Below are positions 37,057 to 62,372 of a DNA stretch of 64,000 nucleotides, piece by piece (within the stretch, counting starts at the first letter, position 1; each line of letters opens with the position of its first letter). Source of the stretch: Squalus acanthias. Its lineage: Eukaryota. A model generated the notes under the pieces. The model did not search any database and had not been told where the DNA came from. It saw only the letters and a program-made list of their open reading frames with translations. Position numbers and translations under genes: made by a program. The stretch is from positions 98,582,001-98,646,000 of the forward strand of contig CM059432.1 in NCBI GenBank assembly GCA_030390025.1, given 5' to 3'.

Positions 37057-38681
37057 TGTAAGGGGTGACCTGCGGCTCTGTGCTTAGCCTGGGTGCTAGT
37101 GCGGGGTTAGGCCTTGTTGCCTGTTCTGGTCTCCAGCCAGCCTGATAACACTAGACACCTGTGAGTGGTTCGACCCACTCGCCCTTACGGTTCTGACACT
37201 GGACTTAGGTGCGAGAGCAATAATGCAGAGAAAGACTCAGGTAGACCCGGTTGAATAGTTGCATATTATTCAAGATTACGAGATACATGTCATAAGCACA
37301 GATTAACGACAGTACAATTTTACACACAGTTATGAAACTAATTTTAGGGAAACGAGGAGCGCACGACACATCGTAGAAGGGGACACACATTATAATTATC
37401 CTTAAAACTTAAACCCTCCCCTATCAATACCTGTCCTAATCTAGATTTGTAGGATCGAGACTCATGCTCACCACTCGTGATAACTCGGAGAATTCCGAAA
37501 CTCTGCTCGGATGTTTTACCGCAGCACCTGACTATCCACGTGTTGATCAGGGGTCTCTGTACCCCACTTGTTTACTCGTTTCTGCTCCGGCTAGCAGGCT
37601 GGACCGTCTGCTGTCATGAAGATCTGTGTTGCCCTCGGAGTTCGGACACCACTCGAAAAAGAGTCTTCCTGTGCCCTACACCAGTTGTCTGTAGAACTCA
37701 AAGAAGGGTCTTCCTAGGCCAGTTGTGGAGTAGCCGATAAAATTCAAAGAAGTGTTTATTCGACTTACAGGCGTGGTCGGAGCTTACTGACCGTGGTGAT
37801 GCGTATTGTTGTCTTCTTCTCTTCTCATCTCATCTCATCTCATCTCCTCTCGGGCCTTCGGTTCCAACACCGTTTACCGACTTCTCGGGATGGTGCACCC
37901 GCTTCCAGGCCTCACAGCCCAGTTCTCCACAGATCTTCGCGGCAAGCCACGAGGTTGATCCTAGCGGATCAGAGTCCAGAGCTGTCAGGCAAGAGAATAA
38001 AAGTTCAGCAGCCTTCCAGCGAGTCAAAGCAGCAAGAGCAGCAAGCCAAAGATGGACGGTTGTACCTTACAGTTATAGTGCTGTAATTCCTCTTTTCCCG
38101 CCCAATCTTAATGTCTATCTTTTGTCAGGTTTTTGGCGCTCAAACTTCTTGTATGGGGTGATCTCAGTCTTTAATGGGTTTCGGTGATACTTGTAACTGT
38201 CTGAGTACCCGTTAATATTTCTCCCATTGTGGAACCGGCTAGTAGTCTCCCTGGAGGGGTTTTGGGGCTTCCAAATGCTTGCTGTAAGTACCCGCAAACG
38301 GCTCTCTCATCGTAGAGTCGTGGGGATTTTGCATATTAATGTCTTTGGATGGGTCCTTGATCGCTCAGTACAATAGCCCTTGTTTGCACCCGGGAGACCG
38401 ATTCCAGTATTTATGTTTAAAATGCAAACCCATCATGTCTTGTCAATTATCTCAAATGTGCTGAGTCCTGTACGATCTTGCACAAATGTTTATTGGAACG
38501 CCATCTTGTCTGCCCACTGAAAGTCTAGAACTTTCTGCCACGAGGCGTGGCGGCCATTTTACAGGCTGTTTGTGTCCGTTTTGAAACCTGACAGCATTCT
38601 GCTGAAATAAAGCTGTTTGTACGAAACTTTATGTCTCCTTCTTATTTTTTTTTAAATCGCGATAATTTTGCGAATTCTACA
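37057..38681 (-). repeat. ERV-A 3' LTR (1625 bp)
   Basis: TGTA..TACA ends; direct repeat of 45311-46960 with about 15 substitutions (counted by eye), a 20-bp deletion and one fewer TCTCA unit. Confidence 0.95.
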
Positions 38682-38692
38682 GTCCCTCCTGT
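38682..38692 (-). other. Polypurine tract of ERV-A
   Basis: ACAGGAGGGAC abutting the 3' LTR; identical in ERV-B. Confidence 0.75.
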
Positions 38693-38862
38693 TGATGCGA
38701 ATAACTCCGCTTATCATATCAAAAACATTGTGGTGAGCAATATTATCTCGATTCTCCATATCCAAAAATTCCCATAACTTAAAACTATCTAGGGTCTCCG
38801 TGTCGTCCTTATTTCCCAGGAAAATTACATTCTTATAACACCGTAGGCAGCATTTGCCTTAA

Positions 38863-39712
38863 GAGGGCGCTAATGGGGCGCAAAGCCGCTAACGCCCGGG
38901 CGCAGCGATGTTTGCGCCGCTCGAGAACTTAACTTGAGATTGTGCGGCGGCGCTAAAACTTACCGCTGCGACCACCTGCGCGCGCAGATTATGATGTCAT
39001 TCCATGGTGCAACGCCCTTGGGGTGCCCCGGAGTGGAAATTGAGTGGCGCCCCCTGCCTTACCGCCTGGCGCATCCAACGACCAGAAGACTGGAATGCTA
39101 TCAATCGCTGTGGGGCTGGGGGGGGCGCTATTTAAAGGGGGCCTCTTCGTGTCTTTTATTGTTGGTGGCATTTTTGAACTACGCATTCTGAGAGAGAGAG
39201 GGAGAGACTTCTGGAGAGATTCAACGTTGTGTGAAGGAGTTTTGGGTACTGAGTAGCACTTTGCAGGTTCATTTTGATTTGCCATTCCTTGTATCGATTT
39301 AGCAGAGCTTGTGGGAGTGGCACTCTGAGCTCTTTGTCTGGTACTCTCCATTGTTCTTTCCAGCACATTTGATGTGCAAGTCTCTCCAGGCCGAGATTCA
39401 AGGCTGCAATGAATAGGATGTGGATGGAAAGTAAGATTAACCATCCCCTTTAAGAACTGGCCCGTGCCATTGTGTGTGTGTTCCATTGCTGACTGACATT
39501 ACATGAGCTTCGCCAGCGCTCTGAGTTAGCGCCTCACTCCTTGGCCTTTGCGCCTTAAGACAGGTGTGCAGCGCCTGCTTTAGTGCTCCACTCACCTCCC
39601 GGGGCGGTAAAAGTGAAGTTTCCTGTCAGTGCCGATAATTAGCGCCAGGCGCTAATATTTGCGTCCAGACGATATTTGCGCCCCAAATGGGGCGCGACCT
39701 AATTTCTACCCC
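38863..39712 (-). mobile_element. Non-autonomous Harbinger piece within the ERV-A 3' untranslated region
   Basis: Reverse complement of 39520-39712 nearly identical to 48808-49000; TIR GGGGTAGAAATT; absent from ERV-B. Confidence 0.85.
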
Positions 39713-39813
39713 GTAGAGTTCCAAACTTTTCTGAGTTTCTGAGAAAAATCACGGTCGATTACAACAATTCCGAGGTGCACGTGGAAAAACTGGAGTGACG
39801 CCATTTTGTCTGT

Positions 39814-42165
39814 TTACGCGGTGCTTTCATCGTGCATGCGCACGTAACGTTCTCGCCACTCTCCCGTGTTTTCGTTCTTGGTGAGGCGTTTGCCTCTCTT
39901 ACAATGCACGACCAATAAGTATATCACAATAAACACTTGGCATACAACTAAAATGTGGGAGGCTATTCTAATCCAGGAAGGCACTTCAATGTTGGTGAAC
40001 AGATCCCACCACGGTGGAATTACTATGTCCAGAATTTCTGTCCCTATCTCGACAGTCTTTTGTTCTAGGGTGTAAAAATGTTTTTGCGATACTGCGACGG
40101 CTTTCAAAAGCTTGGTGAGGTGTTCAGGGAGAGGGGGAATGAGGTATCCGAAATGCGCGACGAATCGCTGCAGGTCGGTGAAGTTCTCTTTTACTGTAAG
40201 ATGAACAGTGGATGATTCAGGGATCGGGACATATCGCTGTTGTGCTACTTGAACTTCCGCCCTGGGTTTAAAACAGAAACTGCTGTCACTCACCGGACAC
40301 CGGCTACGGTTTCCATGTTGGTAGTGTCGAGCTGCAGTGGTAACACAATATGTTCCACCCACGATGTATGCTACCTGCGGAGGCACATGATCTTGTGCCA
40401 TTGCCTCCATGGTGCAATTCATGGGCTTGGCGCCAGCCGTTCTGAACCCGCACTGTGGTGTTAAAAAGGCATTCAAGTGCTGGGGACACAGTATTATGTG
40501 TGCTCCCCGGCCACGACAACCAGAGAGATCTGTACCTGTCATCGTTTGCTCCCAGCGGATGACGTAAGGTGGAACCGCTGCATAGCGAATGTGGGCTCCC
40601 CCCTGAATGACACCAATGTTCTCTACCCGATACACCGGGGCGGGCTTTGCTGTGTCACCCAAAACCGGCATACGTAAAACTATACCCATGATGGTATGGT
40701 TTGATCGTCCGCAGTCCACGGGGACTGGGTATGCTTCTGAAGCTAGCCTGAGCTGGCACGGGCTTAATGCGTTCTGAAAAGGGTGTAGCGCCTGCAGGTG
40801 TTTGTTACTTATCCAGGACGGGACCAAACCTTGTTTTAAATCCTCCAAATTACTGCGGCCCTCGCCCAGTAACCACGCCCCGTAAAGCACGCACACCTTG
40901 TTCTGCGCAGCCTGATCGGACGCATTCCGATCTTCCCTGATCAGGGCATTTACCGTCCGCGCGTGTTTCTCCAGCTCAGCTATGATTTCTTTTAAATGGA
41001 GAGTCATGGCCTGGTCCTCGTGTAACCCAGACCCAACCACCTTATTTTCATCTGTGAGAATATTCTTTAATTGTGTTTTTAAGCCATTAATCTGGGTCTG
41101 CAGCTCCACGCTGTCTAGAGCGTTGACCACAGATGTACCTGCATTGAAAGCAGTGAACATGTAATTCACAACACCCCTTCTTTGTCTCCCCACCTGACCC
41201 AAAACTTCATGTGGTGCGGTGTACAAACTTGTTTTATCAATTTCCGCGAAATCGAACTCATAAAATTGCCTAAACATCTTGGTCAACAGGACCTGATATA
41301 ACTGTTCCGTCTCTTTGGGGCACCACTCCGGCAACCGCACCTCGGTGAGATTTAAAATCACCGAGGCCACCGCGTAATGTACCCCCTGAAATAGTATCTG
41401 GTCTGTAGGGACCAATACCAAACCATTCCCGGGTCCCTTACTGGTTTTTGGGCACCCTTCTTCCTTAGCTAGAACCACCGGAATTGTGGGCGGGGCCTTG
41501 CGTGGGCGCGTAATGAGTTCAGTGGCATTTACCGGGATCGGAGAGTATGGGGCCCCGCACCCCCTGGTGCTTACATCTCACCTCATCCCCTGCCCGTTAT
41601 CCTGCCATTGATTGATGAAAAATATGGAGATGCCTTTGGGGCAAACGTGCTTTTACCCCGACATACATACATAAATTCCCTCATCCGGTTCCCACCATTT
41701 GTCCCAACAGACTCTCACTTGTCCGTTTGTCCCCGTAATTGTCCGATGGGTATTATTACCCAGTCGCTCCCACTCGACTGAAGAGTTCCTCATGTTTTTG
41801 CTCAGCTTTCGCAGCCACCACCATCGGCTCAATGGGACATTCCCATTACAAGTCAAACAAATCCGTTTGCCGACGGTGACGCCGACTCTGGGTGCGATGA
41901 TCCTCACTTTGGGGCACATTAAAGAAGTCTCTTTGTAGGCAAAACCCGACGTACTGCAATACTCAGTGGAATTCGTTCCCAGCCATCCTGGCCACCTTCC
42001 CTTGTAGAAATAGGTGGTGGTCTCCTCAGCCTCTCGCCTTCCGGTCCCATCCACCGCGATGGGGGCCGTGTCCCCGGAGCATCCAAACACCACGACATCC
42101 TTGGTGCGGCCTCGATAGGCCAATCCACATCCGATTGCCGCGAGCACTACTAGAATTCGTTCCAT
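39814..42165 (-). pseudogene. env: ERV-A envelope gene with two in-frame nonsense codons
   Basis: Collinear with and same length (2352 bp) as ERV-B env; TCA>TAA at 41653-41655 and TGG>TGA at 41578-41580. Confidence 0.9.
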
Positions 42166-42456
42166 CCTTCCTTGGTTCCTGTGATCAGATAGAATGAGGT
42201 AGCCAGCCTCCCAAGAGTCTCTGGCTTTTGTGAAGGGTGAGCGGGTCCCCTGACCTCGCCTCACGTAAGAAGACATGTGCGCTGGATAGACTTTAACTAT
42301 TCCTATTTCTAAAAATCCCATAATTTTACCATTTTCTGTTAAAAAAATTAAACTACAAACTTAACCTGATTTAAAACTATAAACTTACACTTATAAACTT
42401 ATAAACTCATCCTAAACTTAAACTGTACAGCGCCGCCCGTTCCCAGGGCGGCCTAC

Positions 42457-43500
42457 TCAAATTCTGTGAAGGCGGACACAAGCTTTTCCCAACGGTGGGA
42501 GGGCACTGACCCCTTCCTTTGATCTGCTGCAGCCTGTCGCTGCTGCGCTGGGACTGGGATCTCCCTGGGCTGCCTTGACCTTGAACTTGCGCCTGGGGGC
42601 GTACGGGGGACTTACCCACATCTTTCTGGGCTGGGGTGTCCGACCTGACCTACGGAGAACTACCGGGGGCAGGAACTCCAGGACTGACGGACTGGGTTTC
42701 GAGACTTCCTCCGTGGCGACCCGTGGTCCCACCACAGTCGTTGGCTCCGCCTCCCCTGACTCCGCCTCCCTGAACTCGGGATCTGCAGCTTGTGGCACCG
42801 CCCTACTTGGCCCAGTAGGCGGCCCTTCACTCGCAGTCACTACCTCCCTCGAGGGCAAGACGTTCAAGGCGGGCGACTCGGGCTCTGAGGCTTCCATCGC
42901 CACGCCCTGTGGTCCCACCACAGCGGCTGGCTCCGCCTCCCCTAGCTCCGCCCCCCTGCGTTCGGGACCTGCAGCTTCGGCCTCCACCCTGTGTGGATCT
43001 CTATCTGCAGCCCCTGTCTCCCCTATACCTGAATCGGGGGCGACCCTTTCGTCCTCCGATTCCAGCTCCTCTTCGCTTGTGTCACTATCTTGGTCGAGCT
43101 CCTCGAACTCTTCCTCATCTGACTCCCAAACCAAATAAAGGATCCTACATTTTGCTAGGATGTCCTCTCCCCTGATGCATGCTGCTTTGCCTGCCTGTGT
43201 GCCCTGTGGCCCTACCCGGGCCTGCGAGTCCCCACTCGCAGGTTTGGCCCCTGTGGTTGGCCCTTGTGCACCTGGCTTATACAGTTTACACTGATTAAAA
43301 TCCTCATTCTCCCTGCTTCTGGCTACCCTGTAGGCTGCTTTTATCTCTCTAAGCTGCCCTTCTAGCCCATCCATTTTCCCCATTAAACGGGCGTTCTCTT
43401 CCTGCAAGGCCTGCTCTTTTAACCTGGCCTCCTTACAGGAGACCCCCTCCTGTGCGTGTCTTTTAAAAGGACACAGGTAGGCAGGCTGTGCGGGCTCTAG
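42457..43500 (-). CDS. ERV-A readthrough ORF: Pol N-terminal stub + Gag-like coiled coil + integrase C-terminal tail
   Basis: Open and in frame after the gag TGA-CTAG: LEPAQPAYLCP, then EARLKEQ..AAYRVA, then NQCKLYKPGAQG.. homologous to the ERV-B Pol C-terminus. Confidence 0.75.
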   Translation of the reverse strand, partial: LEPAQPAYLCPFKRHAQEGVSCKEARLKEQALQEENARLMGKMDGLEGQLREIKAAYRVARSRENEDFNQCKLYKPGAQGPTTGAKPASGDSQARVGPQGTQAGKAACIRGEDILAKCRILYLVWESDEEEFEELDQDSDTSEEELESEDERVAPDSGIGETGAADRDPHRVEAEAAGPERRGAELGEAEPAAVVGPQGVAMEASEPESPALNVLPSREVVTASEGPPTGPSRAVPQAADPEFREAESGEAEPTTVVGPRVATEEVSKPSPSVLEFLPPVVLRRSGRTPQPRKMWVSPPYAPRRKFKVKAAQGDPSPSAAATGCSRSKEGVSALPPLGKACVRLHRI

Positions 43501-45306
43501 TCATTGGGTACTGGTGAACGGGGCTGCGGCATCTGCGGGGCCGGTAGCGACTGCCACACTTCCCTGCGAAATCATGAGGGTGCGCATGGCTCCCAACATT
43601 GATTCGATCGCATCGGGATGGATAGGTGCACCAGCTCCCCTATCAGAGGCAGGCGCCTGGGCTCGGACTGCGGGATTTTTATCCCTGGACTCCTTCCAAG
43701 GATTCCTGCAGTTCTTGCGCCATTGCCCTGTCTTTCCACATCCGAAACAAGCATTACTGGCCTGTGGGACGCGATTTCCCTCCTGATGCCACTCCTTTTG
43801 AGCCGGGGCTGTGGGCCGCGCCTCATGCAACTTTCCCTTAAGGGGACGTGCTCCCGCACTCCTGGTATTACGGTACCCTACCGTGAGTCGATTTAGGACC
43901 GACTCCTCTGTTGTGGCGGGGTTAGTGGGATCAAACCACGCTTTGGCCTGCTCCCTGACGGCTGGCAAACTGTTGGCTACCACACACCTGAGCCAATGAG
44001 TTAAACCGACACCGTCTATGCGGTGACGCGCTGGCGCGCCTGGGCAGCTACGTCGATATACTAGCCACAGCCTGTCGGCGAAAACCTTCGGGGGTTCTCC
44101 CTCCATCTGCACTGTTTGTCCCAATCTAACGAACGGACCTTCATCGTCCGCTCCCAACACTTCCAGGACCTCGTCCCTCAATTCCCCATAGGTATTATTT
44201 CCCCTCTTGCTCTCGTCTGAGAGACACTGAAGGATCGAGCTGTCTAATGAGAACAACAGCATTTTTGCTTTTTCCCCATCGTCGCAGCCGTTAATGGCTG
44301 CGGTTTGCTCTACATCCCTGAAATGTACGGAAGGGTCGTCTGACTCGGACAGCTTCCGTACGTGACTGATCATAACCCTCAGCTGGTGTGAGCTGTGAGG
44401 CAACACAAGCTGGTTGAGGAGATCCCCCTCTGCCCCATCTGCTCCGTTCGGGCCCCTCTTGATACCCGTGACTGGACACAACGGTCCCGGCTTCACTTCT
44501 ACCTCAGGGGGCTCTTCCTCTACTTCTACCACTTCCTTCCTCACCCAGGTTGCCGAATAGCTGGGTGGCGCGGAGGGCACAGTGGCAAATACCTCCTCTG
44601 TTTTGTTCGGTGGGGATTTCTGAAATTCCCCACCCACCAGCGGCTGGTGTGCTGCCGGGCTGATAAGGCACACCATGCCGTGCGCTTTATTCAGGGCCTC
44701 TTTAAGGTTCCCTATCTCTCTTTGGCAGACGCTGTGATCGGCCCCCTGATGTTTATCCTCGAGGGCCATCTTATATGCCGCCCTAACCCCCGTTAAGCTC
44801 TCTTCCTGGGCTTTTATTTGGGCAGCTAGGCGGGCACATCGTTCCTTTATTCTGCCCTCATTTAACTTTGCCTCAGTGACCTGGCACTCGAGGTAATCTA
44901 TTTTTGCCTCATGGTGGTTGGCGACTAACTGGCGTTCTTGATGCAACGCATTTAAAGACGCGATGAGCTGCTGCCCCCCCGCGACCTTCTCGTCCATTTC
45001 CACCTCTAAACCCTTGATCTGCGCTGCCTGCGCTAAGATGACCTGGTCCAAAAGCTGGACTTGTCTTTTATAGCACATCAGCCAGACCGCTTTCTCTACT
45101 GTTTTTTTATGTTCCTTGCTACCTGTCCACCTCACGGCTGCCTCTAGTGGACGCTTATCCACCAGCAGGTCACTTATCCATTTCTTAGTCAAATTCACTT
45201 TTCCAAACACATAATCTGCTATTCTCTCTTCCATAACATTTCACCCATTCATACCAGGGTCTAACACATTATATTCTCGCTGCCAGTGTCCCTTCGTGGT
45301 CGCCAT
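43501..45306 (-). pseudogene. gag: ERV-A Gag; stop at codon 22, open for 577 aa from 45234
   Basis: Homologous to ERV-B Gag; TGA at 45241-45243 where ERV-B has CGA; zinc knuckle His replaced by Gln (CFGCGKTGQWRKNC); PSAPPSY present. Confidence 0.88.
45288..45305 (-). other. Primer binding site, tRNA-Arg type (ERV-A)
   Basis: TGGCGACCACGAAGGGAC, 5 nt after the 5' LTR; complementary to a vertebrate tRNA-Arg 3' end GTCCCTTCGTGGTCG-CCA (tRNA sequence recalled, not looked up). Confidence 0.85.
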
Positions 45307-45310
45307 TAGC

Positions 45311-46960
45311 TGTAAGGGGTGACCTGCGGCTCTGTGCTTAGCCTGGGTGCTAGTGCGGGGTTAGGCCTTGTTGCCTGTTCTGGTCTCCAGCCAGCCTGAT
45401 AACACTAGACACCTGTGAGTGGTTCGACCCACTCGCCCTTACGGTTCTGACACTGGACTTAGGTGCGAGAGCAATAATGCAGAGAAAGACTCAGGTAGAC
45501 CCGGTTGAATAGTGCGAAATGGAAAATCTTTATTGCATATTATTCAAGATTACGAGATACATGTCATAAGCACAGATTAACGACAGTACAATTTTACACA
45601 CAGTTATGAAACTAATTTTAGGGAAACGAGGAGCGCACGACACATCGTAGAAGGGGACACACATTATAATTATCCTTAAAACTTAAACCCTCCCCTATCA
45701 ATACCTGTCCTAATCTAGATTTGTAGGATCGAGACTCATGCTCACCACTCGTGATAACTCGGAGAATTCCAAAACTCTGCTCGGATGTTTTACCGCAGCA
45801 CCTGACTATCCACGTGTTGATCAGGGGTCTCTGTACCCCACTTGTTTACTCGTTTCTGCTCCGGCTAGCAGGCTGGACCGTCTGCTGTCATGAAGATCTG
45901 TGTTGCCCTTGGAGTTCGGACACCACTCGAAAAAGAGTCTTCCTGTGCCCTACAGCAGTTGTCTGTAGAACTCAAAGAAGGGTCTTCCTAGGCCAGTTGT
46001 GGAGTAGCCGATAAAATTCAAAGAAGTGTTTATTCGACTTACAGGCGCGGTCGGGGCTTACTGACCGTGGCGATGCGTATTGTCGTCTTCTTCTCTTCTC
46101 ATCTCATCTCATCTCATCTCATCTCCTCTCGGGCCTTCAGTTCCAACACCGTTTACCGACTTCTCGGGATGGTGCGCCCGCTTCCAGGCCTCACAGCCCG
46201 GTTCTCCACAGATCTTCGCGGCAAGCCACGAGGTTGTTCCTAGCGGATCAGAGTCCAGAGCCGTCAGGCAAGAGAATAAAAGTTCAGCAGCCTTCCAGCG
46301 AGTCAAAGCAGCAAGAGCAGCAAGCCAAAGATGGACGGTTGTACCTTACAGTTATAGTGCTGTAATTCCTCTTTTCCCGCCCAATCTTAATGTCTATCTT
46401 TTGTCAGGTTTTTGGCGCTCAAACTTCTTGTATGGGGTGATCTCAGTCTTTAATGGGTTTCGGTGATACTTGTAACTGTCTGAGTACCCGTTAATATTTC
46501 TCCCATTGTGGAACCGGCTAGTAGTCTCCCTGGAGGGGTTTTGGGGCTTCCAAATGCTTGCTGTAAGTACCCGCAAACGGCTCTCTCATCGTAGAGTCGT
46601 GGGGATTTTGCATATTAATGTCTTTGGATGGGTCCTTGATCGCTCAGTACAATAGCCCTTGTTTGCACCCGGGAGACCGATTCCAGTATTTATGTTTAAA
46701 ATGCAAACCCATCATGTCTTGTCAATTATCTCAAATGTGCTGAGTCCTGTATGATCTTGCACAAATGTTTATTGGAACGCCATCTTGTCTGCCCACTGAA
46801 AGTCTAGAACTTTCTGCCACGAGGCGTGGTGGCCATTTTACAGGCTGTTTGTGTCCGTTTTGAAACCTGACAGCATTCTGCTGAAATAAAGCTGTTTGTA
46901 CGAAACTTTATGTCTCCTTCTTATTTTTTTTTAAATCGCGTTAATTTTGCGAATTCTACA
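45311..46960 (-). repeat. ERV-A 5' LTR (1650 bp)
   Basis: TGTA..TACA ends; AATAAA on - at 45529-45534; (TCTCA)n tract. Confidence 0.95.
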
Positions 46961-48805: not shown

Positions 48806-49166
48806 GAGGGGGAAAAATTAGGTCGCGCCCCATTTGGGGCGCAAATATCGTCTGGACGCAAATATTAGCGCCTGGCGCTAATTATCGGCACTGACTGGAA
48901 ACTTCACTTTTACCGCCCCGGGAGGTGAGTGGAGCGCTAAATCAGGCGCTGCACACCTGTCTTAAGGCGCAAAGGCCGAGCAGTGAGGCGCTAACTCAGC
49001 GCGCGAGCGCAGCGCAGCTGCTGCCAGTTAGCGAGGGAACACAGACACACTGGCGCCGGCCACTTCTTAAAGCGGGGGGGGCCAACTTGCTCCCCAGCCA
49101 CACCCTGCTCATTGCAGCCTTGAATCTCGGCCTGGAGAGACCTGTGAATCCATTTTGCTGCCAAGG

Positions 49167-51437: not shown

Positions 51438-53032
51438 TGTAAGGGATTCTCTCCTGACCCTGCGTGTCTCGTAGCCTGTGAGATTCACGCGGCTCTGTGC
51501 AGCCTGTATGTCAGTGCGGGTCTAGGCCTGGTCTCCAGCCAGTCTGGGAACACTAGACACCCCTGTGAGTGGTTCGAATCACTCTCCCTTACGGTTCTAG
51601 ACACTGGACTTAGATGCGAGAGCAGTAATGGAGATAAAACTCATGTAGACTTGGTTTGAACGGTACGAAATGGAAAATCTTTATTGCATGATACTTAAAA
51701 TTATGAAATACATGTCATATGCACAGATTAATGACAGTACAATCTTACAAACAGTTATAATCACTCTTAGGGAAACGAGGAACGACCAGCACAACGTAAA
51801 TAGGGCACACATTACAAATATCCTTAATCTTTAAACCCTCCCCTATCAATGTCTATCCTAAACTAGCTTCGTAGGATCTCGAGACTCATGCTCACCACTC
51901 GTAATAACTCGGAGAAATCCCGAATAGCTGATCGGATGTTTTTCACCGCAGCACCCACGTGTTGGTCAGGAGATCTCCTGGTCCCACTTGTTTACTGCTT
52001 TTGCTGCTCGGTCAGTCGGCTGGACCGTCCGCTGTAGTGAAGACCTCTGTTGGTTGGATACAAGGTATGGTGGAGCACCGTTGTCAATATCGCTGATACG
52101 ATGTGTTTGCACAGTCCAGTTATCATCGATGCAATATGTCTTGTTAAAGAAGAAAACTTCCTGTCGAGAAGACTTGGCTGATCGACCTACAGGCGCGGTC
52201 GGGATTTACTGACCGTGGCGATGGATAAGGTCTTCTTCTCTTCTCCTCTCATCTCATCTCATCTCATCTCATCCCGGGCCTTCGGTTCCGCTGCCAGCTA
52301 CCAACATAGGTCTTTGCAACAGTCTTTTACACAGGAGCAGCCACGATGATAACAGCAACAAGCGGCAAGAGTCAAGAACACGAGGCAAGAGTCAAGAGCA
52401 AGAGAGAGAATGGACGGTTTGGGGCCTGCAATTATAGTGCACAGTTCTTCCGTTTCCCGCCCAACTACAATGTCCATTCTTTTGTTTAAGGTTTGGCGCC
52501 CAAAATGTCCTGTATGGGTGATCTCTGTCCTTAATGGGTTTCGGGGCTACTCCTGAATGTTTGAGTACCTGCTAATATTTCTCCCATTGTTAAATCGGTC
52601 GGTGTTCCCCCTGGAGGGGTTTGGGGCTTCCAAGTGTCCTGTATAACTACCTGCTAACGGCTCTCTCATCGTAGAGCCGTTGGGAGTTTACATATTAATG
52701 TCCTTTGGATGGGCCTTTGATGGCTTTCCTTTGTACCTGGGAGACCGATTCCAGTATCGATGTTTATACTGTAAACCCATAATGTCCTGTGTATTGTCTT
52801 CACTGTGCTGAATCGTTATCGATCCTGCAAAAAAAAAATGTTTATTGGAACGCCATCTTGTCTGCCTGTTGAAAAGTCTAGAATGTTCTGTCACGCGGTG
52901 CGGCGGCCATTTTACAGGCTGCTTGTGTCCAATTTAAACCTGACAGCATTCCGCTGAAATAAAAGCTGTTTTGAACGAAACTTTGTGTTTTCTCCTTATT
53001 AAAATGAAATCGCGATAATTGCGAATTCTACA
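51438..53032 (-). repeat. ERV-B 3' LTR (1595 bp)
   Basis: Direct repeat of 62373-63968; I found one substitution and one A-run indel; AATAAA on - at 51680-51685. Confidence 0.97.
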
Positions 53033-53043
53033 GTCCCTCCTGT
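53033..53043 (-). other. Polypurine tract of ERV-B
   Basis: ACAGGAGGGAC abutting the 3' LTR. Confidence 0.75.
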
Positions 53044-53456
53044 TGATGCGAATAACTCCGCTTATCGTATCAAAAATCTCAGTGGTGAGCAATCTTATCT
53101 CGATTTCACTCCGAATCCAGTAAATTAATCCCATAAATTTTAACTTCACTAGGGTCTCTGTGTCGTCCTCATTTCCCAAGAAAAATCACACTTTATATCA
53201 CCATAGGCATCATTTGCCCTTAAACTTACACCACTTGTTTTCCTTCCCGGCGTAACCAGGCCGATACCTCACGCATCACCTGTATATTTGTCTTTTATTC
53301 AAGGGAAGGAAAAACAAAACCCAAAAACCAAACAATCAACACCATCACCAAAATAAACAAATCCCAACTCTTAAACATATCGCGTTTCCAACGTATTTAC
53401 AATGAGTACAAACTTCCGCGGCGCACGTGGCGAGCGGGAGTGACGCCATTTTCCCA

Positions 53457-55808
53457 TTACACTGCGCTCTCATCGTGCACGCGCACGTAACGTTCTCGCC
53501 ACTCTCCCGTGTTCTCATGCTTGGTGAGGCGCTTGCCTCTTTTACAATGTATGAACAAAAGGTATACTACAATAAACACTTGACAGACGACTAAAATGTG
53601 GGAGGCTATTCTGACCCATGAGGGCACTTCAATATTAGTGAACAGGTTCCACCACGGTGGAACCACTATGTCCAAAATGTCTGTTCCAATTTCGACGGTT
53701 TTCTGTTCTAAGGTATAAAAATGCTTTTGTGACACCGCGACGGCTTTCAGAAGTTTGGTTAAATGCTCAGGGAGAGGGGGAATGAGGTATCCAAAATGCG
53801 CGACAAATCGCTGCAAGTCGGTGAAATTCTCTTTTACTGTGAGATGAACAGTGGATGGTTCAGGGATTGGGATAATTCGCTGTTGTGCTACTTGAACTTC
53901 AGCCCTGGGTTTAAAACAGAAACTGCTGTCACTCACCGGACACCGGCTACGGTTTCCATGCTGGTAGTGTTGCGCTGCAGTGGTAACACAATATGTTCCA
54001 CCCCCGATGTATGCTACCTGCGGAGGCACATGATCTTGTGCCATTGCCTCCATGGTGCAATTCATGGACTTGGCGCCAGCCGTTCTGAACCCGCACTGTG
54101 GTGTTAAAAAGGCATTCAAGTGCTGGGGGCACAGTATTATGTGTGCTCCCCTGCCACGACAACCAGAGAGATCTGTACCTGTCATCGTTTGCTCCCAGCG
54201 GATGACGTAAGGTGGAACCGCTGCATAACGAATGTGGGCTCCCCCCTGAATGACACCAATGTTCTCTACCCGATACACCGGGGCGGGCTTTGCTGTGTTG
54301 CCCAAAACCGGCATGCGTAATACTATTCCCATAATAGTATGGTTTGAACGTCCGCAGTCCACGGGGACTGGGTAAGCTTCTGAAGCTAGCCTGAGCTGGC
54401 ACGGACTTAATGCGTTCTGAAAAGGGTGGAGCGCCCGCAGGTGTTTGTTACTTATCCAGGACGGGACCAAACCTTGTTTTAAATCCTCCAAATTACTGCG
54501 GCCCTCGCCCAGTAACCACGCCCCGTAAAGCACGCACACCTCGTTCTGCGCAGCTTGATCGGATGCATTCCGATCTTCCCTGATCAGGGCATTTACCGTA
54601 CGCGCATGTTTCTCCAGCTCTGCTATAATCTCTTTTAAGTGTAGTGTCATGGCTTGGTCCTCGTGCAGACCCGACCCTACCACTTTATTCTCATCTGTAA
54701 GAATATCCTTTAACTGTGTTTTTAAACCATTAATCTGGGTCTGCAGCTCCACACTGTCTAGAGCGTTGACCACAGATGTCCCTGTGTTAAAAGCAGTGAA
54801 CGCATCGTTCACCAAACCCCTTCTTTGCCTCCCTACTTGGTCCAAAACTTCCTGCGGTGCGGTGTATAAACTTGTCTTATCAATTTCTGCAAAATCAAAC
54901 TCGTAAAATTGCCTGAACATCTTGGTCAACAGGACCTGGTACAACTGTTCCGTCTTTTTGGGGCACCACTCTGGTAACCGTACCTCAGTGAGATTTAAAA
55001 TCACCGAGGCCACCGCGTAATGTACCCCCTGAAATAGTATCTGGTCTGTGGGGACCAGTACCAAACCGTTCCCGGGTCCCTTACTAGTTTTAGGGCACCC
55101 TTCTTCCTCAGTTAGAACTACCGGGATCGTGGGCGGGGCTTTGCGTGGGCGCGTAATGAGCTCAGTGGCATTTACTGGGATCGGAGAGTATGGGGCTCCG
55201 CACCCCCTGGTGCTCGCATCCCACCTCATCCCCTGTCCGTTATCCTGCCACTGGTTAATAAAGAATATGGAGATGCCTTTGGGGCAAACGTACTTTGACC
55301 CCCACATACAAACATAAATCCCCTCATCCGGTTCCCACCATTTGTCCCAACAGACTTTCACTTGTCCGTCTGTCCCCGTAATTGTCCGATGGGTATTATT
55401 ACCCAGTCGCTCCCACTCAACCGAAGAGTTCCTCATAGTTTTGCTCAGCTTTCGCAGCCACCACCATCGGCTCAATGGGACATTCCCACTGCAGGTCAAA
55501 CAAATCCGTTTGCCGACGGTGACGCTGATCCTGGGTGCGATGATCCGTACTTTGGGGCACATTAAAGAAGTCTCTTTGTAGGCGAACCCCGATGTGCTGG
55601 AATACTCCGTTGAGTTCGTTCCCAGCCATCCTGGCCACCTTCCCTTGTGGAAATAGGTGCTGGTCCCCTCTGCCTTCCGTCTCCCGGTCCCATCCACCGC
55701 GATGGGGGCCGTGTCCCCGGAACATCCAAACACCACGACATCCTTGGTGTGGCCTCGATAGGCCAATCCACATCCGATTGCCACGAGCAATACTATAAGT
55801 CGTTCCAT
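53457..55808 (-). CDS. env: Envelope glycoprotein, 783 aa: signal peptide, Ig-like domain, class I F-like fusion protein
   Basis: Signal MERLIVLLVAIGCGLA; furin site RQRR at 327-330; fusion peptide and heptad; Cys-rich region; TM ILVVCQVFIVVYLLFI; many NxS/T sequons; YVRV in the tail. Confidence 0.92.
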   Translation of the reverse strand: MERLIVLLVAIGCGLAYRGHTKDVVVFGCSGDTAPIAVDGTGRRKAEGTSTYFHKGRWPGWLGTNSTEYSSTSGFAYKETSLMCPKVRIIAPRISVTVGKRICLTCSGNVPLSRWWWLRKLSKTMRNSSVEWERLGNNTHRTITGTDGQVKVCWDKWWEPDEGIYVCMWGSKYVCPKGISIFFINQWQDNGQGMRWDASTRGCGAPYSPIPVNATELITRPRKAPPTIPVVLTEEEGCPKTSKGPGNGLVLVPTDQILFQGVHYAVASVILNLTEVRLPEWCPKKTEQLYQVLLTKMFRQFYEFDFAEIDKTSLYTAPQEVLDQVGRQRRGLVNDAFTAFNTGTSVVNALDSVELQTQINGLKTQLKDILTDENKVVGSGLHEDQAMTLHLKEIIAELEKHARTVNALIREDRNASDQAAQNEVCVLYGAWLLGEGRSNLEDLKQGLVPSWISNKHLRALHPFQNALSPCQLRLASEAYPVPVDCGRSNHTIMGIVLRMPVLGNTAKPAPVYRVENIGVIQGGAHIRYAAVPPYVIRWEQTMTGTDLSGCRGRGAHIILCPQHLNAFLTPQCGFRTAGAKSMNCTMEAMAQDHVPPQVAYIGGGTYCVTTAAQHYQHGNRSRCPVSDSSFCFKPRAEVQVAQQRIIPIPEPSTVHLTVKENFTDLQRFVAHFGYLIPPLPEHLTKLLKAVAVSQKHFYTLEQKTVEIGTDILDIVVPPWWNLFTNIEVPSWVRIASHILVVCQVFIVVYLLFIHCKRGKRLTKHENTGEWRERYVRVHDESAV

Positions 55809-56092
55809 CCTTCCTTGGTTCCTGTGATCAGATAGAATGAGGTAGCCAGCCTCGCAAAAAGTCTCTGGCTTTTGTGACGGGTGAGCGGGTCCCCTGACCT
55901 CGCCTCACGTAAACTTCAACGTTCGCTAAATAGACTTCCTCTAAACCTAGCCTTAAAACTCCCATCATTTTGTCGTTATCTGTTAAAAACACTACAAACT
56001 TAACCTTATTAAAACTACTTAAAACTTTAAACTAAAACTTAAAACCTTAAACTAATAACTTTACAATGCCGCCCGTTCTCAGGGCGGCCCCT

Positions 56093-59000
56093 TTAAATCC
56101 TGAGAAGGCTGCTGCGAGCTCTTCCCGACGGTGGGAGGGCACTGACCCTTTCCTCTGATCTGCCGCAGCCTGTTACTGCTTCGATGTGGCCTGTCTCTAC
56201 CCGGGTTATCTTAACCTGAAACTTACGCCCTGGGGCAGCCTGTGGACCTGACCACATCTTCCTGGGCTGGGGTACTCTGCTTGACCTACGGGGAATTGCT
56301 ATGGGCGGGGGCTCCGTGACGGACGGACCGGGTCCCGAGACCTTCAACGGGATGACCTGGGGTTCCATCACAGGCGCCAGCCCCGCCTCCGCTGACTCCG
56401 CCTCCCTGACCTCGGGGCTGGCAGTTCGGGGCCCCGCCCTGCTCGGTCCAGCAGGCGGCCCTTCACTCGTGAACTCTGCCTCCCCTGAGGACTGGACGTT
56501 CAAAGCGGGCGGCCACACCTCTGGGAACCACATAGCGGCTGGCCCGGCCTCCTCTAGCTCCTTCCTCCTGTTGTCGGGACCTGCAGCTTGTGTGTCCACC
56601 CCGTATGGATCTCTACCTAGCGGCCCCAATCCTCCCAGACCGTTCCTCAGGAACCACCCGTCATCATCACTATGCTCATCTGCACTATCCTCATCTGACC
56701 AGGGTACCCTGGGGTCCTCGTCATCTAACCCCCAACTCCAGAAAAACGCTGCATGATCGTCCGGGATGTCCCTTCCCCTGATGCAAGCTGCTACGCCTGC
56801 CTGTGTGCCTTGTGGTCCTACCTGGGGCTGTGTTTTCCCATTGGCGGGATTTACCCCTGTAGTTTTCCCTTGCGCACCCGGCTGGTACAGTTTACATTGG
56901 TTTATGTGGAACCACTTAGTGCGCCGAGGTACTTTTACGGCGTAAACCATGGGACTCGCCTTGTCTACAATGTTGTAGGGTCCCATATACAGTGGTTCCA
57001 GACTCCCTACTCTGGCGTAGTTTCTGACCATAACCTGGTCTCCTACTTCCCACTCCCGCGTTTTGCGGGGTTCCAGCAACAAGCGATTGCCCTGATGCTG
57101 CCTTCCCATGTTCCCAGCCGCCTGCTCATAAACTTGCTTCAGGCGCTCCAAGAGAGTTTGGGCGAACTTGTCCCTGCTGATCTCTTGAAGCTGACCCTCA
57201 GTGAGCACCGGGGCTAGCACATGGGTGGGGGTTCGCATGAGCCTCCCAGTCATTACCTCGTGCGGGGAGTACCCCGTACTTTTTGACTGACTGGCCCGGA
57301 CCCCCATGAGGACTAAAGGCAGAACTTCCGCCCATTTTTGGGGCGAGTTCCTAGTCTCTTTCCTCAATTTCTCCTTCAGGGTCCGGTTCATACGTTCAAC
57401 AATCCCGGATGACTGGGGATTGTGTGCTACGTGCCACTTCCCTTCAATGCCCAAAAGCATGAGGGTGTTCTGCATCACCTGGCCGGTGAAATGACTCCCT
57501 TGGTCTGACTCCACAAAACGGGGGAGTCCCCACCGCGAGAACACTTCCCGGACCAAGATTTTTGCTGTACCCAGTGCCGTAGCTGTTCGACAAGGGAAGG
57601 CTTCCACCCACTTGGAAAACACATCCACCAGGACGAGGCAGTACTTATAACCTCCCTGGGTGGTGGGCAGGGGTCCTATATAGTCGATCTGTATCGACTG
57701 CCATGGTCCCTCTACCCTTCTTACGTGTCCCATGGGCACCTTCCTTTTCTGGGGGTCTGGGTTATTTGCAGCGCACACAAGACAGTTTGCACAGAACTCG
57801 CGGACTTGTTCCCTGAGCCCTGGCCACCATCCCGCTTGCTCTACCCGTTGCCAGGTAACCTCGGGCCCGGGGTGCCCTGCCCCTGGTCCCTCGTGAGCCA
57901 ACTGGAGGAATTCCCTCCTGTGCTGCTGCGGCACAACCCACTGCTCCTCGCGGAACAGCATGCCTTCCTTAACTGAGAGGGTTGCCGTACTGTACGGACC
58001 TTCTACCTGCCTCCCCTCAGCAATCGTTTTTAGGACTGCTTTTAGGGCGGGATCCTGGGCTTGGACGGTCTTAAGGTCTAGGGGCAATGCTACCCTGGTG
58101 TTCCCGGTATTCCCGTCCCCGCCTCGGACCGCTGCTATGGGTCCGGTTCTATAGGGGTTCCAGAAAGTACCGTCGTGGGCACCCTCCCTGGCTAGCGCAT
58201 CCGCCTGCCGGTTGCCCTCCCCACGGGGCTCTGTGGAGGAGTGAGCTTTCACCTTATGGATGAAAATCTCCCCTTCCTCCCCTACTGCTGCTGCTAAGAT
58301 CTTCTCCAGCAAGGGCTTTACCGTTAAAGGTCGCCCGTCCGCGGAGGTGTATCCACGGCGGGACCAAATGGCCAGGTATTCCGTACACGAATTGCAGGTG
58401 AACATACTGTCCGAGCAAATCGTGTATGGGGTTGGGAAAATGTCTGGGTGGGTTACCACGTACACCACGGCAGACAGCTCAGCCTGCTGCGCGCTCATGG
58501 TGCTAGGGAGCTTGATCGCCAGGGCAAGGTCTGCCGCAGGGTCATAAACTCCACACCCTGTGAGTCGCTCGCCAGCAGATACTGTGCTAGACCCATCAAC
58601 ATAAATCTCGCGCCCAGTGGGATGTATCCCGGCCCGTAAACCTATGTTGACGTCCCACACCCCCTCCACCGAACACCGGTGGGCTGTACCGGGGTATACC
58701 AAATTGGCCGCAAGCCTGGGCTCGCAAAGACCTTTTACTCTGATGTCCAACTGGGAGAGAAGAAGGGTCCAACGCGCAATGCGTGCGCTGCTTACGGTCC
58801 CGTCTTTAATCCTCCCATCCAGAAGCATCTTAGTTGGTGTGTGATGTGTGAGGAGAGTGATGGGAGAGAGCCCTGTGAAGATCGCTGATCTTTTCACAGC
58901 CCAATGCGTGGCTAAAAGGTGCCTTTCGCAATTGGAAAAACTTCTCTCCACATCCGTTAATACCCTGGATGAATAGACAACCGGCCTCAGCTTGCCGTGA

Positions 59001-60556
59001 CGCTCTTGGAGCAGTACGGCGCTTAAGCTGTCTCCGCTGGCAGCTACCTCCAGGAAAAACTCCTTCCCCCCATCTATGGCCCCTAAGGCTGGCGCGGTCT
59101 GCAGATCCCTTTTTAACTTCTCGAAGGCTGCTTGGCAGCCCTCGTCCCAAAGCCACTCTACCCCCTTATGGAGGAGTCGGAGGAGCGGCGCCGCTGTGGC
59201 CGCATAATCCTCGATAAAATCCCTGCAGTAACCGGTCAGTCCCAAGAAGGACCTCACACCCCTTACGTTGTTGGGAATCGGTAATTCTTGCACCGACTCC
59301 CTCCTGGCTTTGTCTATAGCTCTTTCCCCAGCGCGTAGGGTCAGTCCCAGGAATTTTACTTCCTGCTGACCGATACGTGCTTTCTTTGGGTTTACTTTAA
59401 AACCCTTTCTCGCTAACAGCTCCAATAACTCGTCCAGTAGTGGTCCGTGCTCCTCCCTTGAGTCCGTAAATAGGAGCAAATCATCCACATACTGTACTAT
59501 CTGATTGGGCTGACTGAACTCCTTTAAACTTCCTGCCATACACTGGTGAAAAATACTGGGGCTATTGTGGAAACCCTGTGGCAAGCAGTTCCACGTGTAC
59601 TGTTGCCCTTTAAACGTAAAGGCAAACTTGTACTGGTCCTCTCGCCGCAGCGGGATGGACCAAAAACCGTTCGAGATATCCAGCACCGTGAACGTGGTCG
59701 CGGACGCTGGGATGCTCCCTATTAGGTCAGCAACTGCTGCTACTGTGGGCGCGCAGGCGGGGATGTTACTGTTAAGGACTCTGTAGTCCACCGTGGCTCT
59801 CCACGAATTATCCGGCTTCCTAACCGGCCATAATGGGGAGTTCACGTGTGTGGCTATCGGCCTCAACACGCCCTGCTGCACCAAGGAAGACATTGCTGCC
59901 TCCATATCGGGTTCTGCTTCTTTGGGGAAGTTATACTGCTTTTGGGGTCGGGTCATGGGGTCCCCATCTACGCTGACCTCAAACCCGACCACCCTCCCAC
60001 AATCGTGCTTGTGGGTTGCAAACGCGTGCATATTATCTGTCACGTACGTTTGCATGTCCGTTGGGACATCTGCGACCATAAGCCTGAGGTCGTAGCCTCC
60101 GGATGGCTGTACGGTACACAGGACCCCTGTTTCTTCCTCCCCTTGAATCACCATTACCTCGCCTTTTTCACCTTTAGCCCCCCAGAGACAGTGATTTCTG
60201 AGGTCCACGAGGATCCCGTGTCCCGCTAGCAGATCGGACCCGAGAATACCTCTTCCACCCCCCTTTTGCCATGCCATCAGTATACACTTCCACTTAAGGC
60301 GAAGTGTCCCTAAACGAATGGATAGCGGGAGGGAAAACGTGCCAGCCTGTTCTTTCCCTGTGAACCCTGCTAGCGTGAATGGGACCTTGGTAGATAGCGG
60401 CGAGTCAAAAGGGTCATCTGTATGGATTATGGTGCAAGAAGCTCCCGTGTCCAACAAATAACTGCCCTTTTGTTTCTCTACCTCCATCTCCACCACAGGT
60501 CGCCTCCACGCATCATAGCTGAGCGGACACAGGTAGACGGGCTGTGCTGGTTCTAG
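56093..60556 (-). CDS. pol: Pol (PR-RT-tether-RNase H-IN plus long C-terminal tail), in frame with gag
   Basis: LLDTGAS; LPQGFHNSP; YVDD; degenerate RH (LEVAAS..VVYSSR); RH (YVDGS, AELSA, SDS, GNRQAD); HHCC, QIDYIGP, SDQGSHF, VERMNRTLK, GPY. Confidence 0.96.
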   Translation of the reverse strand, partial: LEPAQPVYLCPLSYDAWRRPVVEMEVEKQKGSYLLDTGASCTIIHTDDPFDSPLSTKVPFTLAGFTGKEQAGTFSLPLSIRLGTLRLKWKCILMAWQKGGGRGILGSDLLAGHGILVDLRNHCLWGAKGEKGEVMVIQGEEETGVLCTVQPSGGYDLRLMVADVPTDMQTYVTDNMHAFATHKHDCGRVVGFEVSVDGDPMTRPQKQYNFPKEAEPDMEAAMSSLVQQGVLRPIATHVNSPLWPVRKPDNSWRATVDYRVLNSNIPACAPTVAAVADLIGSIPASATTFTVLDISNGFWSIPLRREDQYKFAFTFKGQQYTWNCLPQGFHNSPSIFHQCMAGSLKEFSQPNQIVQYVDDLLLFTDSREEHGPLLDELLELLARKGFKVNPKKARIGQQEVKFLGLTLRAGERAIDKARRESVQELPIPNNVRGVRSFLGLTGYCRDFIEDYAATAAPLLRLLHKGVEWLWDEGCQAAFEKLKRDLQTAPALGAIDGGKEFFLEVAASGDSLSAVLLQERHGKLRPVVYSSRVLTDVERSFSNCERHLLATHWAVKRSAIFTGLSPITLLTHHTPTKMLLDGRIKDGTVSSARIARWTLLLSQLDIRVKGLCEPRLAANLVYPGTAHRCSVEGVWDVNIGLRAGIHPTGREIYVDGSSTVSAGERLTGCGVYDPAADLALAIKLPSTMSAQQAELSAVVYVVTHPDIFPTPYTICSDSMFTCNSCTEYLAIWSRRGYTSADGRPLTVKPLLEKILAAAVGEEGEIFIHKVKAHSSTEPRGEGNRQADALAREGAHDGTFWNPYRTGPIAAVRGGDGNTGNTRVALPLDLKTVQAQDPALKAVLKTIAEGRQVEGPYSTATLSVKEGMLFREEQWVVPQQHRREFLQLAHEGPGAGHPGPEVTWQRVEQAGWWPGLREQVREFCANCLVCAANNPDPQKRKVPMGHVRRVEGPWQSIQIDYIGPLPTTQGGYKYCLVLVDVFSKWVEAFPCRTATALGTAKILVREVFSRWGLPRFVESDQGSHFTGQVMQNTLMLLGIEGKWHVAHNPQSSGIVERMNRTLKEKLRKETRNSPQKWAEVLPLVLMGVRASQSKSTGYSPHEVMTGRLMRTPTHVLAPVLTEGQLQEISRDKFAQTLLERLKQVYEQAAGNMGRQHQGNRLLLEPRKTREWEVGDQVMVRNYARVGSLEPLYMGPYNIVDKASPMVYAVKVPRRTKWFHINQCKLYQPGAQGKTTGVNPANGKTQPQVGPQGTQAGVAACIRGRDIPDDHAAFFWSWGLDDEDPRVPWSDEDSADEHSDDDGWFLRNGLGGLGPLGRDPYGVDTQAAGPDNRRKELEEAGPAAMWFPEVWPPALNVQSSGEAEFTSEGPPAGPSRAGPRTASPEVREAESAEAGLAPVMEPQVIPLKVSGPGPSVTEPPPIAIPRRSSRVPQPRKMWSGPQAAPGRKFQVKITRVETGHIEAVTGCGRSEERVSALPPSGRARSSLLRI

Positions 60557-62368
60557 TCATGGGGCACTATTAGACGGTCCTGCGGCACCTACGGGGCCGG
60601 TTGCGACCGCCACCTGTCCACGCGCATTCAAAACCATCTTGCGCATGACTCCTAACACTGCTTCGAGGTCGTCGGGAGGGGTGGGTGCCTTGGCTTCCTT
60701 AGCCGGGACAGGCGCCTGGGTTCGGACCGCGGGATTTTTATCCTTGGAATCCTTCCAAGGGTTCCTGCAGTGCTTGCGCCAGTGCCCTGTCTTCCCACAC
60801 CCGTAACAGGCATTACTTGCCTGTGGGGCGCGATTACCCTCCTGATGCCACTCTCTTTGAGCCGGGGCTGCGGGTCGTACCTCATGTACTCTTCCCTTAA
60901 AGGGACGTGTCGTCATACCCCTTATGTTACGATAACCTAACGTGAGTCGATTCAAGACCGACTCTTCCGTAAGGTTGAGGTCATTGGGATCGAACCAGGC
61001 TTTTGCCTGCTCTCTAACGGCTGGTAAACTGTTGGCTATGATGCACCTAAGCCAATGAATTAAAGCGGCGCCTTCCACATCTTCGCGCTCGGGCGCACCC
61101 AGACAGCTGCGCTCATATACGGGCCACAGCCTGTCGGCAAAAACCTTCGGGGGTTCTCCCTCCATCTGCACTGTCTGTCCTACTCTAGCAAACGGACCTC
61201 CGTCGTTCGCCCCCACTACTTCTAGGACCTCATTTTTCAATTCCTCATAACTTTTATTACCCCTCTTGCTATCGCCTGAGAGACACTGAAGGACCGAGCT
61301 ATCTAACGAGAACAGCAGCATTTTTGCTGTCTCCCCATCATCGCAGCCGTTGATGGCTGCGGCTTGCTCAACTTCCCTGAAATGTACGGAAGGGTCGTCT
61401 ATCTCGGTCAGCTTCCTTACGTGGTTTATCATGGCTCTCAGCTGATGTGAACTGTGAGGCAACACCAGCTGTCCGAGGAGATCCCCCGGTTCTTCCCCAC
61501 CGTTTCTGCTTGGGCCCCTTTTAATACCCGTTACTGGATACAACGATCCCTTTTCTACCTCCTTTTCAACGGGCTCTTTTGCTTCTTCCGTTGCTTCCTC
61601 CCTAACCCAGGTTTCTGAATAGCTGGGTGGCGCGGAGGGCGCAGTGGCTACTACTTCTTCTGCTTTACTTGGTGGGGAATTTCTAAATCTCTCATTTACT
61701 AGCGGCTGGCGTGCCGACGGATTAATAAGGCACACCATGCCGTTCGCATTATTCACGGCCTTTTTGAGGCTCTCTATCTCTTTTTCGCAGGCGCTATGGT
61801 CGGCTCCCTGAAACTTATCCTCAAGGGCCAACTTATACGCCGACCTAACCCCCATTAAGCTCTCTTCTTGAGTTCTTATCTGGGCAGCTTGACGGTTACA
61901 TCTTTCCTTCATCCTACTCTCGTTTAATTTTGCTTCAGTGATCTGGCACTCGAGATACTCTACCCTTGTTTTAAGGTAACTGGAGACTTCCTGGCTTTCC
62001 TGGCGTAACTCATGTAAACTCTTAATGAGCGCCTCCCCTCCAGAAACCTTCTCCTCCATTTCCTCCTCTAACTGCTTGATTCGAGCGGTTAGCGCTGTAT
62101 TGGTCTGGTTTGAAATCTGAACCTGCCTTTTGTAGCACATAAGCCAGACTGCTTTCTCAACTGCCTTTTTATGCTCCTTACTATCAGTCCACCTTTCAGC
62201 TGCCTCTAGTGGGCTCTTATCCGCTAACAATTCGCTTATCCACTTTTTCGTTAGATTAACCTTTCCAAATACGTAATCCGCTATCTTTTCCTGCATCACA
62301 TTTCGTACAGTCATTCCAAAATCTAACACACTACCCTCTCGCTGCCAGTGTCCTGCCGCGGTCGCCAT
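60557..62368 (-). CDS. gag: Gag, 603 aa (coiled coil, PSAPPSY, capsid-like region, one CCHC knuckle)
   Basis: First ORF after the LTR; CYGCGKTGHWRKHC; ends in TGA-CTAG. Confidence 0.93.
   Translation of the reverse strand: MATAAGHWQREGSVLDFGMTVRNVMQEKIADYVFGKVNLTKKWISELLADKSPLEAAERWTDSKEHKKAVEKAVWLMCYKRQVQISNQTNTALTARIKQLEEEMEEKVSGGEALIKSLHELRQESQEVSSYLKTRVEYLECQITEAKLNESRMKERCNRQAAQIRTQEESLMGVRSAYKLALEDKFQGADHSACEKEIESLKKAVNNANGMVCLINPSARQPLVNERFRNSPPSKAEEVVATAPSAPPSYSETWVREEATEEAKEPVEKEVEKGSLYPVTGIKRGPSRNGGEEPGDLLGQLVLPHSSHQLRAMINHVRKLTEIDDPSVHFREVEQAAAINGCDDGETAKMLLFSLDSSVLQCLSGDSKRGNKSYEELKNEVLEVVGANDGGPFARVGQTVQMEGEPPKVFADRLWPVYERSCLGAPEREDVEGAALIHWLRCIIANSLPAVREQAKAWFDPNDLNLTEESVLNRLTLGYRNIRGMTTRPFKGRVHEVRPAAPAQREWHQEGNRAPQASNACYGCGKTGHWRKHCRNPWKDSKDKNPAVRTQAPVPAKEAKAPTPPDDLEAVLGVMRKMVLNARGQVAVATGPVGAAGPSNSAP
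62350..62367 (-). other. Primer binding site, tRNA-Arg type (ERV-B)
   Basis: TGGCGACCGCGGCAGGAC, complementary to a tRNA-Arg(TCG) 3' end GTCCTGCCGCGGTCG-CCA (tRNA sequence recalled, not looked up). Confidence 0.85.
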
Positions 62369-62372
62369 TTTC

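Follow-up and report, generated by a model that had tools for sequence, protein, structure and literature searches.

A probable Gag-derived coding cassette in place of pol in an endogenous retrovirus family of Squalus acanthias

Described systems and the architecture of ERV-A

Non-autonomous endogenous retroviruses (ERVs) are usually viewed as one-off decay products bound to one helper. As far as the available portions of the sources describe them, several known systems come close to the element studied here. Mouse IAP 1Delta1 is non-autonomous, receives Pol in trans and keeps an open frame over the region it has lost, and its fusion protein is reported to act in cis (PMC6466679, PMC7411935). 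In recKoRV/KoRV, bovine ERVK[2-1-LTR] D/C and ETn/MusD, a central segment is replaced by a piece of another retroelement, with microhomology at the breakpoints, trans-complementation and recombination with helpers (PMC6112702, PMC10924933). Pol-less Athila elements have gag and env, are long-lived and recombine with autonomous families (PMC2410132), and zebrafish BHIKHARI elements, fish ERVs without pol, encode a Gag with a coiled coil at its N-terminus (bioRxiv 10.1101/2024.03.25.586437). The snakehead-like ERVs (clade Huo) and CmiERV lineage I have gag and pol joined by a stop codon, and ERVs of this type are present in a cartilaginous fish (PMC6001957, PMC4422223).

We analysed a 64-kb stretch of Squalus acanthias DNA, henceforth the window. 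Its minus strand carries a provirus, ERV-A (37057-46960), in which 57 codons sit in frame in place of 1207 Pol codons. The coordinates of its parts are given in Table 1. Read directly from the sequence, the gag stop (TGA, 43501-43503) is followed by CTAG, and the 11 codons that come next (43468-43500) match the Pol start of ERV-B, a pol-bearing relative in the same window. The 57 codons have no blastn match in ERV-B. Similarity restarts at NQCKLY, where position 43296 of ERV-A corresponds to 56902 of ERV-B and to residue 1219 of its Pol, and the post-gag frame stays open over 347 codons to a stop homologous to that of ERV-B. This is the arrangement that a preliminary description of the locus had proposed. 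The 3' junction lies close to the end of, but still inside, the SH3-like domain of integrase (Pfam 1182-1224), and the 279 residues kept beyond it are mostly a Pro/Glu-rich tail without a Pfam match.

Table 1 Parts of ERV-A and the comparison element in the window
Feature	Position	Strand
5' LTR of ERV-A, TG...CA; TSD GCAT 46961-46964	45311..46960	-
Primer-binding site that pairs with a genomic tRNA-Arg(TCG) at its 3' end; shares bases with the first ATG, which is in the gag frame	45288..45305	-
gag: N-terminal coiled coil, capsid-like region, CCHC knuckle; stop at codon 22, then 579 open codons	43504..45306	-
Local counterpart of the insert: end of the Gag coil that ERV-A itself encodes; bounds approximate	44764..44874	-
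TGA-CTAG stop and 11 kept Pol codons; likely 5' crossover site	43468..43503	-
Cassette: 57 codons from the coiled coil of a foreign Gag; a longer version occurs in other copies, of which this is the short form	43297..43467	-
Perfect 7-bp hairpin within the cassette	43435..43453	-
Final residues of the SH3-like domain of integrase, then the Pro/Glu-rich tail of Pol; 279 codons and stop	42457..43296	-
env of ERV-A, two in-frame stops	39814..42162	-
857-nt secondary insertion	38856..39712	.
3' LTR of ERV-A; TSD GCAT 37053-37056	37057..38681	-
ERV-B, pol-bearing relative for comparison; LTRs 99.7%, TSD CCTC	51438..63968	-

The LTRs of ERV-A are 97.4% identical and flanked on both sides by the target-site duplication (TSD) GCAT, in agreement with the earlier suggestion that the element integrated in its pol-less form. 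That description was right that gag is kept; env is kept as well, lies in the same frame as ERV-B env and is 94% identical to it over 780 aa. This copy has one in-frame stop in gag (counted from the first ATG) besides the two in env. ERV-B has gag, the TGA-CTAG stop, a 1487-codon Pol (protease, RT, tether, RNase H, integrase) and env. This gene order, with env present in the helper, is that of a Retroviridae-like ERV.

The Pol tail of ERV-A contains an internal repeat (42701-42804 and 42887-42990, spacing 186 nt, 78%), a further unit of which occurs in another copy (L384). The insertion in the 3' region is 85% like window positions 48808-49192 and is not found at that position in other copies. 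Near-identical pieces occur at other positions in or beside six other loci (L036, L038, L041, L051, L145, L198), so it is probably a small mobile element for which these proviruses are a frequent target. The primer site overlapping the first in-frame gag ATG differs among ERV-A, ERV-B and L130.

ERV-A has a tRNA-Arg primer site, as expected for a snakehead-like ERV, SnRV being primed by tRNA-Arg. By eye, the RT motifs of ERV-B match the SnRV row of a published alignment; at the motif that follows YTW/WT, ERV-B agrees with SnRV and the two loki RT rows do not (available part of the supplement of PMC7947760). On these motifs the backbone may be snakehead-like rather than loki. Its Pol relatives are from amphibians and the coelacanth (50-52%) and the closest named Gag is from a skate (58%). 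A search of a viral sequence collection returned no relative of the backbone. Env had no match in Pfam or PDB and one unnamed atlas match at 0.84. The stop context of SnRV, UAG-GGC, differs from the UGA-CUA of ERV-A and ERV-B, which is a type II readthrough context (PMC13517186, in the part available).

Against the systems above, ERV-A and its relatives differ in several respects. IAP 1Delta1 is a plain deletion that fuses gag to pol and lacks env (PMC6466679, PMC7411935), whereas the ERV-A family has full-length gag and env, a foreign coding filler and a gag stop codon kept in 129 of the 130 pol-less copies read, and is thus no simple-deletion constitutive fusion. The available text on the bovine D-type elements gives them no intact ORFs (PMC10924933), and that on recKoRV nowhere mentions reading frame; in the ERV-A family the replacement is an in-frame coding segment, found on backbones with gag ends 64-68% identical. 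Athila elements belong to plant Ty3/gypsy, and the portions of the paper available describe no in-frame cassette behind a readthrough stop (PMC2410132). BHIKHARI elements have Gag only and are lokiretrovirus-related, again with no cassette in the available text (bioRxiv 10.1101/2024.03.25.586437). A literature search, with most subscription papers outside its reach, retrieved no description of an in-frame coding cassette that stands behind a kept readthrough stop and is common to several families. Central swaps, pol-less gag and env families and cis-acting fusions are each known; the arrangement described here appeared in none of the sources and seems to be new.

A pol-less family and its pol-bearing partners

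We searched the genome with a 471-nt query spanning both junctions, and all 40 scored matches (from 3504 candidates) covered both. An 18-mer from the insert had 327 exact genome matches, compared with 1 for a control 18-mer; it detects 61 of 69 known copies, and 327 is therefore a floor. Among 60 matches that were fetched, 57 had the gag end and the tail, two lacked one flank and one was unrelated, and pol was present in none. In a set of 89 insert-bearing 10-kb loci, which includes three near-duplicates, a pair of LTRs was visible in 43 (median identity 98.6%, range 88.6-99.75) and an exact 4-bp TSD was found at 32 of 36 readable ends. A pol match occurred in two of the 89, both times on the opposite strand and away from the cassette. 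Many insertions with LTR pairs and TSDs thus have the loss of pol in common, and ERV-A almost certainly belongs to a non-autonomous family. The helper-dependent family that had been proposed from this locus is supported by the junction-spanning copies, the 18-mer matches, the LTR pairs and the TSDs. The many matches, together with the LTR pairs and TSDs at the loci examined, rule out a one-off rearrangement of ERV-A after insertion. Full-pol copies of the ERV-A family do exist, yet the two junctions are not unique to this locus. Among contigs from sequencing runs of a presumed kind, those of two organisms span the 5' junction and those of one organism span the 3' junction, which speaks to presence and not to expression. 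At one place (G000:C3:64285928-64318175), six cassette matches lie about 6.4 kb apart, as if the pol-less element, or a segment that contains it, were repeated in tandem.

The preliminary description had the family rely on ERV-B-type Pol. Searching with the tail of the window's element, we found pol-intact elements with 1496-codon frames that are 93-97% identical to ERV-A downstream of the junction, and the tail of a distant pol-less subfamily retrieved that subfamily's own pol-intact partners. Each of the 17 tabulated pol-less copies has 91-97% gag identity to its best pol-bearing partner, compared with 73-82% to ERV-B; distant pol-less subfamilies are 84-86% identical to each other. We therefore reject ERV-B as the main helper, the nearest pol-bearing partners being copies of the ERV-A lineage itself. 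A pol-intact partner that shares LTR and gag exists in the genome. An RT 24-mer had 2014 genome matches, of which 29 pol-bearing copies were sampled.

Origin of the cassette and its movement between backbones

The insert had been described as aligning without gaps to the local Gag while being too diverged for a local copy. The alignment holds over 37 aa. Against ERV-A Gag, the 57 residues score 64, compared with at most 50 for shuffled sequences (0 of 300 reached the score), and against ERV-B Gag they score 49 (3 of 300), in both cases with no similarity at the DNA level. Gags from databases outscore the local ones, reaching 85, and the nine best alignments listed all lie at the coil end. Other copies, at least 150 of them, carry a long form that runs beyond the window's junction into the HGPC...GMVC segment of Gag and then into a piece of the capsid start. 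Over about 85 aa, this long form is 45-52% identical to the Gags of a third family (best E 5e-25, for 10 loci listed of 60 searched), as against 38% for ERV-A Gag and 33% for ERV-B Gag. The better fit of foreign Gags leads us to reject a copy of the element's own gag, and the divergence first suggested by the short insert is borne out. An out-of-frame or antisense pol remnant is also rejected, as no match above shuffles was found in ERV-B outside gag. By sequence comparison, then, the cassette is nearly certainly foreign Gag in origin.

The third-family Gags indicate the lineage of the donor. The exact donor that the preliminary description had hoped to trace was not found, the best DNA match to the cassette being 77% over 116 nt (L250/L263). 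A degenerate pattern gave 0 matches in the donor search, and the end of the long form gave 150 matches at 92-100%; the 18 that we fetched, like the others already examined, are all cassette copies. The 347-aa ORF had no match among proteins of 190-608 residues in a protein database search. The loci L250-L309 include at least three further Gag families that are 40-46% identical to ERV-A Gag and have in common 32 nt after the gag stop. These 32 nt are 84-91% identical even in third-family elements. A 7-nt near-match links the NHG codons of the cassette with the NQC codons of integrase, a microhomology at the 3' junction of the short form. The short form in the window would fit a later deletion at this near-match.

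Pol-less and pol-intact copies interleave in trees of gag and of the tail (89 and 95 rows, with six loci left out because they were duplicates, incomplete or full of indels). On 30 hand-chosen rows, 17 pol-less and 13 pol-bearing, an AU test rejected a single gag clade of pol-less copies (p=9e-41). In L394 and L406, the cassette is 94-97% identical to that of other copies on a backbone with 64-68% identity at the gag end and 50-55% in the tail. L378 carries it on an ERV-B-like backbone (gag 90-91% identical to ERV-B and 80-84% to ERV-A, LTRs 99.75%), and in L168 integrase residues have returned at the 3' junction. Because near-identical cassettes sit on unlike backbones and the gag tree is interleaved, the cassette appears to move by recombination; its transfer between backbones is very probable. 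The insert is thus not a one-off recombination product. Within the ERV-A lineage either segment may have moved, because between helper clades, too, the divergence of pol is below that of gag (pS 0.10-0.14 compared with 0.25-0.29).

Reading frame, selection and competing explanations

We assessed whether the cassette evolves as coding sequence. The frame from the stop to the tail is open in 124 of 131 measured copies, an open frame over the lost region like that of IAP 1Delta1. Among the cassette length classes are -9, +6, one or two additional 69-nt units, +33/+36 and +174. Among the 13 classes found in more than one copy, 12 are in frame, the exception being two copies with separate extra indels; private indels elsewhere in these elements are in frame in 25 of 101 cases. 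The classes are not independent and represent about five events, which gives P near 0.004 at one in three. Judged from these lengths, selection probably holds the frame of the cassette. Three caveats apply: copies found by protein search are biased towards unbroken frames, crossovers between related genes preserve the frame without selection, and an open tail can come from helpers.

Amino-acid change gives a different picture, and neutral evolution of the chimeric ORF, raised in the preliminary description, fits the residues and not the frame. In 36 copies, gag and env were strongly constrained (p 2.5e-4 to 3e-15), as opposed to the insert (p=0.56) and the tail (p=0.78). Shared-versus-private comparisons detected no significant amino-acid selection in the first 41 insert codons of 132 copies (p=0.26) or in 26 long forms (p=0.69). 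Four clade contrasts were made for the 37-aa coil core: two gave a net pN/pS of 0.19 [0.03-0.60] and 0.26 [0.04-0.78], and the intervals of the remaining two (0.61 and 0.28) include 1. The distal tail is near neutral even against ERV-B (0.89). Amino-acid selection on the coil thus appears weak or absent. In gag, variants exclusive to pol-less copies (51 N:22 S) were indistinguishable from private ones (305:104, p=0.39), that is, from neutral, whereas those common to pol-less copies and helpers stood at 172:226. Since the pol-less-only variants look neutral, the constraint on gag, and probably on env, may come from helpers through backbone exchange. Low dN/dS in gag or env of pol-less families should be read with this in mind, as it can stem from recombination with helpers.

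The explanation to which we lean is a pol-less family with a foreign Gag fragment in frame for pol, a cassette that moves by template switching and a frame kept for a benefit in cis. The RNA of the element would be packaged and copied with the Pol of a matched helper. Co-packaged RNAs would allow template switching to place the cassette on new pol-intact backbones, with putative crossovers at the conserved 11 codons on the 5' side and in the Pol tail on the 3' side. Some ribosomes would read through UGA-CUA and make a Gag-coil-tail protein in place of Gag-Pol, and translation of the open frame would favour the copying of its own RNA by helper enzymes, after the report on IAP 1Delta1. We give this cis benefit, argued by analogy, about an even chance of being the reason for the open frame. 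On this reading, the open frame would matter more than the exact residues of the coil. The coil could instead be a working domain, its readthrough product binding Gag coils in the particle and competing with helper Gag-Pol or favouring its own RNA. The captured segment is exactly the Gag coil end, in-frame double or triple copies of a 23-residue unit arose and spread, the insert contains no shared stop, and the two low pN/pS contrasts of the coil core point the same way. We nevertheless consider this rather improbable: the shared-versus-private tests on the insert are non-significant, two clade contrasts include 1, the cassette was trimmed several times, the Tyr of its conserved AAY motif varies freely, and pol-bearing matches exceed insert matches (2014 to 327, from patterns of unequal sensitivity).

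It is doubtful, too, that the cassette is an inert stuffer, with the element gaining from shortness and kept cis signals and the frame persisting through codon-aligned crossovers and refreshment from helpers. The near-neutral change in insert and tail, the gag selection that is not demonstrable once helper-shared variants are removed and the microhomology at the short-form 3' junction would all fit, and non-coding central swaps suffice in recKoRV and the bovine D-type elements (available text of PMC10924933). Yet the original joins, which connect the Pol start with the Gag coil, the coil with the capsid start and the capsid start with the tail, bring unrelated genes together and are all in frame, and the -9, +6 and +69 changes inside the cassette are beyond the reach of helper refreshment. 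A bolder and similarly doubtful possibility makes the cassette a selfish module that turns any related retrovirus with the readthrough sequence into a satellite; it would exploit the readthrough signal of the helper to produce, instead of Gag-Pol, a Gag-coil decoy biasing packaging or enzyme use towards its own RNA. If true, the cassette would act as a defective-interfering module that is endogenous, codes for protein and passes from one virus family to another. In our main reading, the cassette is likely a reusable module that makes a virus a helper-dependent freeloader. One coding cassette on several backbones, trimmed and duplicated many times in frame, amounts to a natural series of variants, with which one can test whether it is an open frame or a specific protein that a defective retrovirus has to retain in cis.

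RNA structure 3' of the stop was unremarkable in all six sequences folded (z-scores -1.3 to +0.7). In the stem of the cassette hairpin, 1 of 14 sites is variable compared with 17 of 65 (p=0.17), with no compensatory change. ERV-B, the comparison element, stems from a very young burst, with all 40 scored matches 99-100% identical across the gag-pol junction. Its env (53457-55904) has a basic cleavage motif, RQRR, and weak Ig-like matches near the N-terminus (E about 1). Elsewhere in the window, an ORF at 22942-23583 is transposase-like, which we take to be Harbinger-like, and several LINE fragments lie within 2106-36113.
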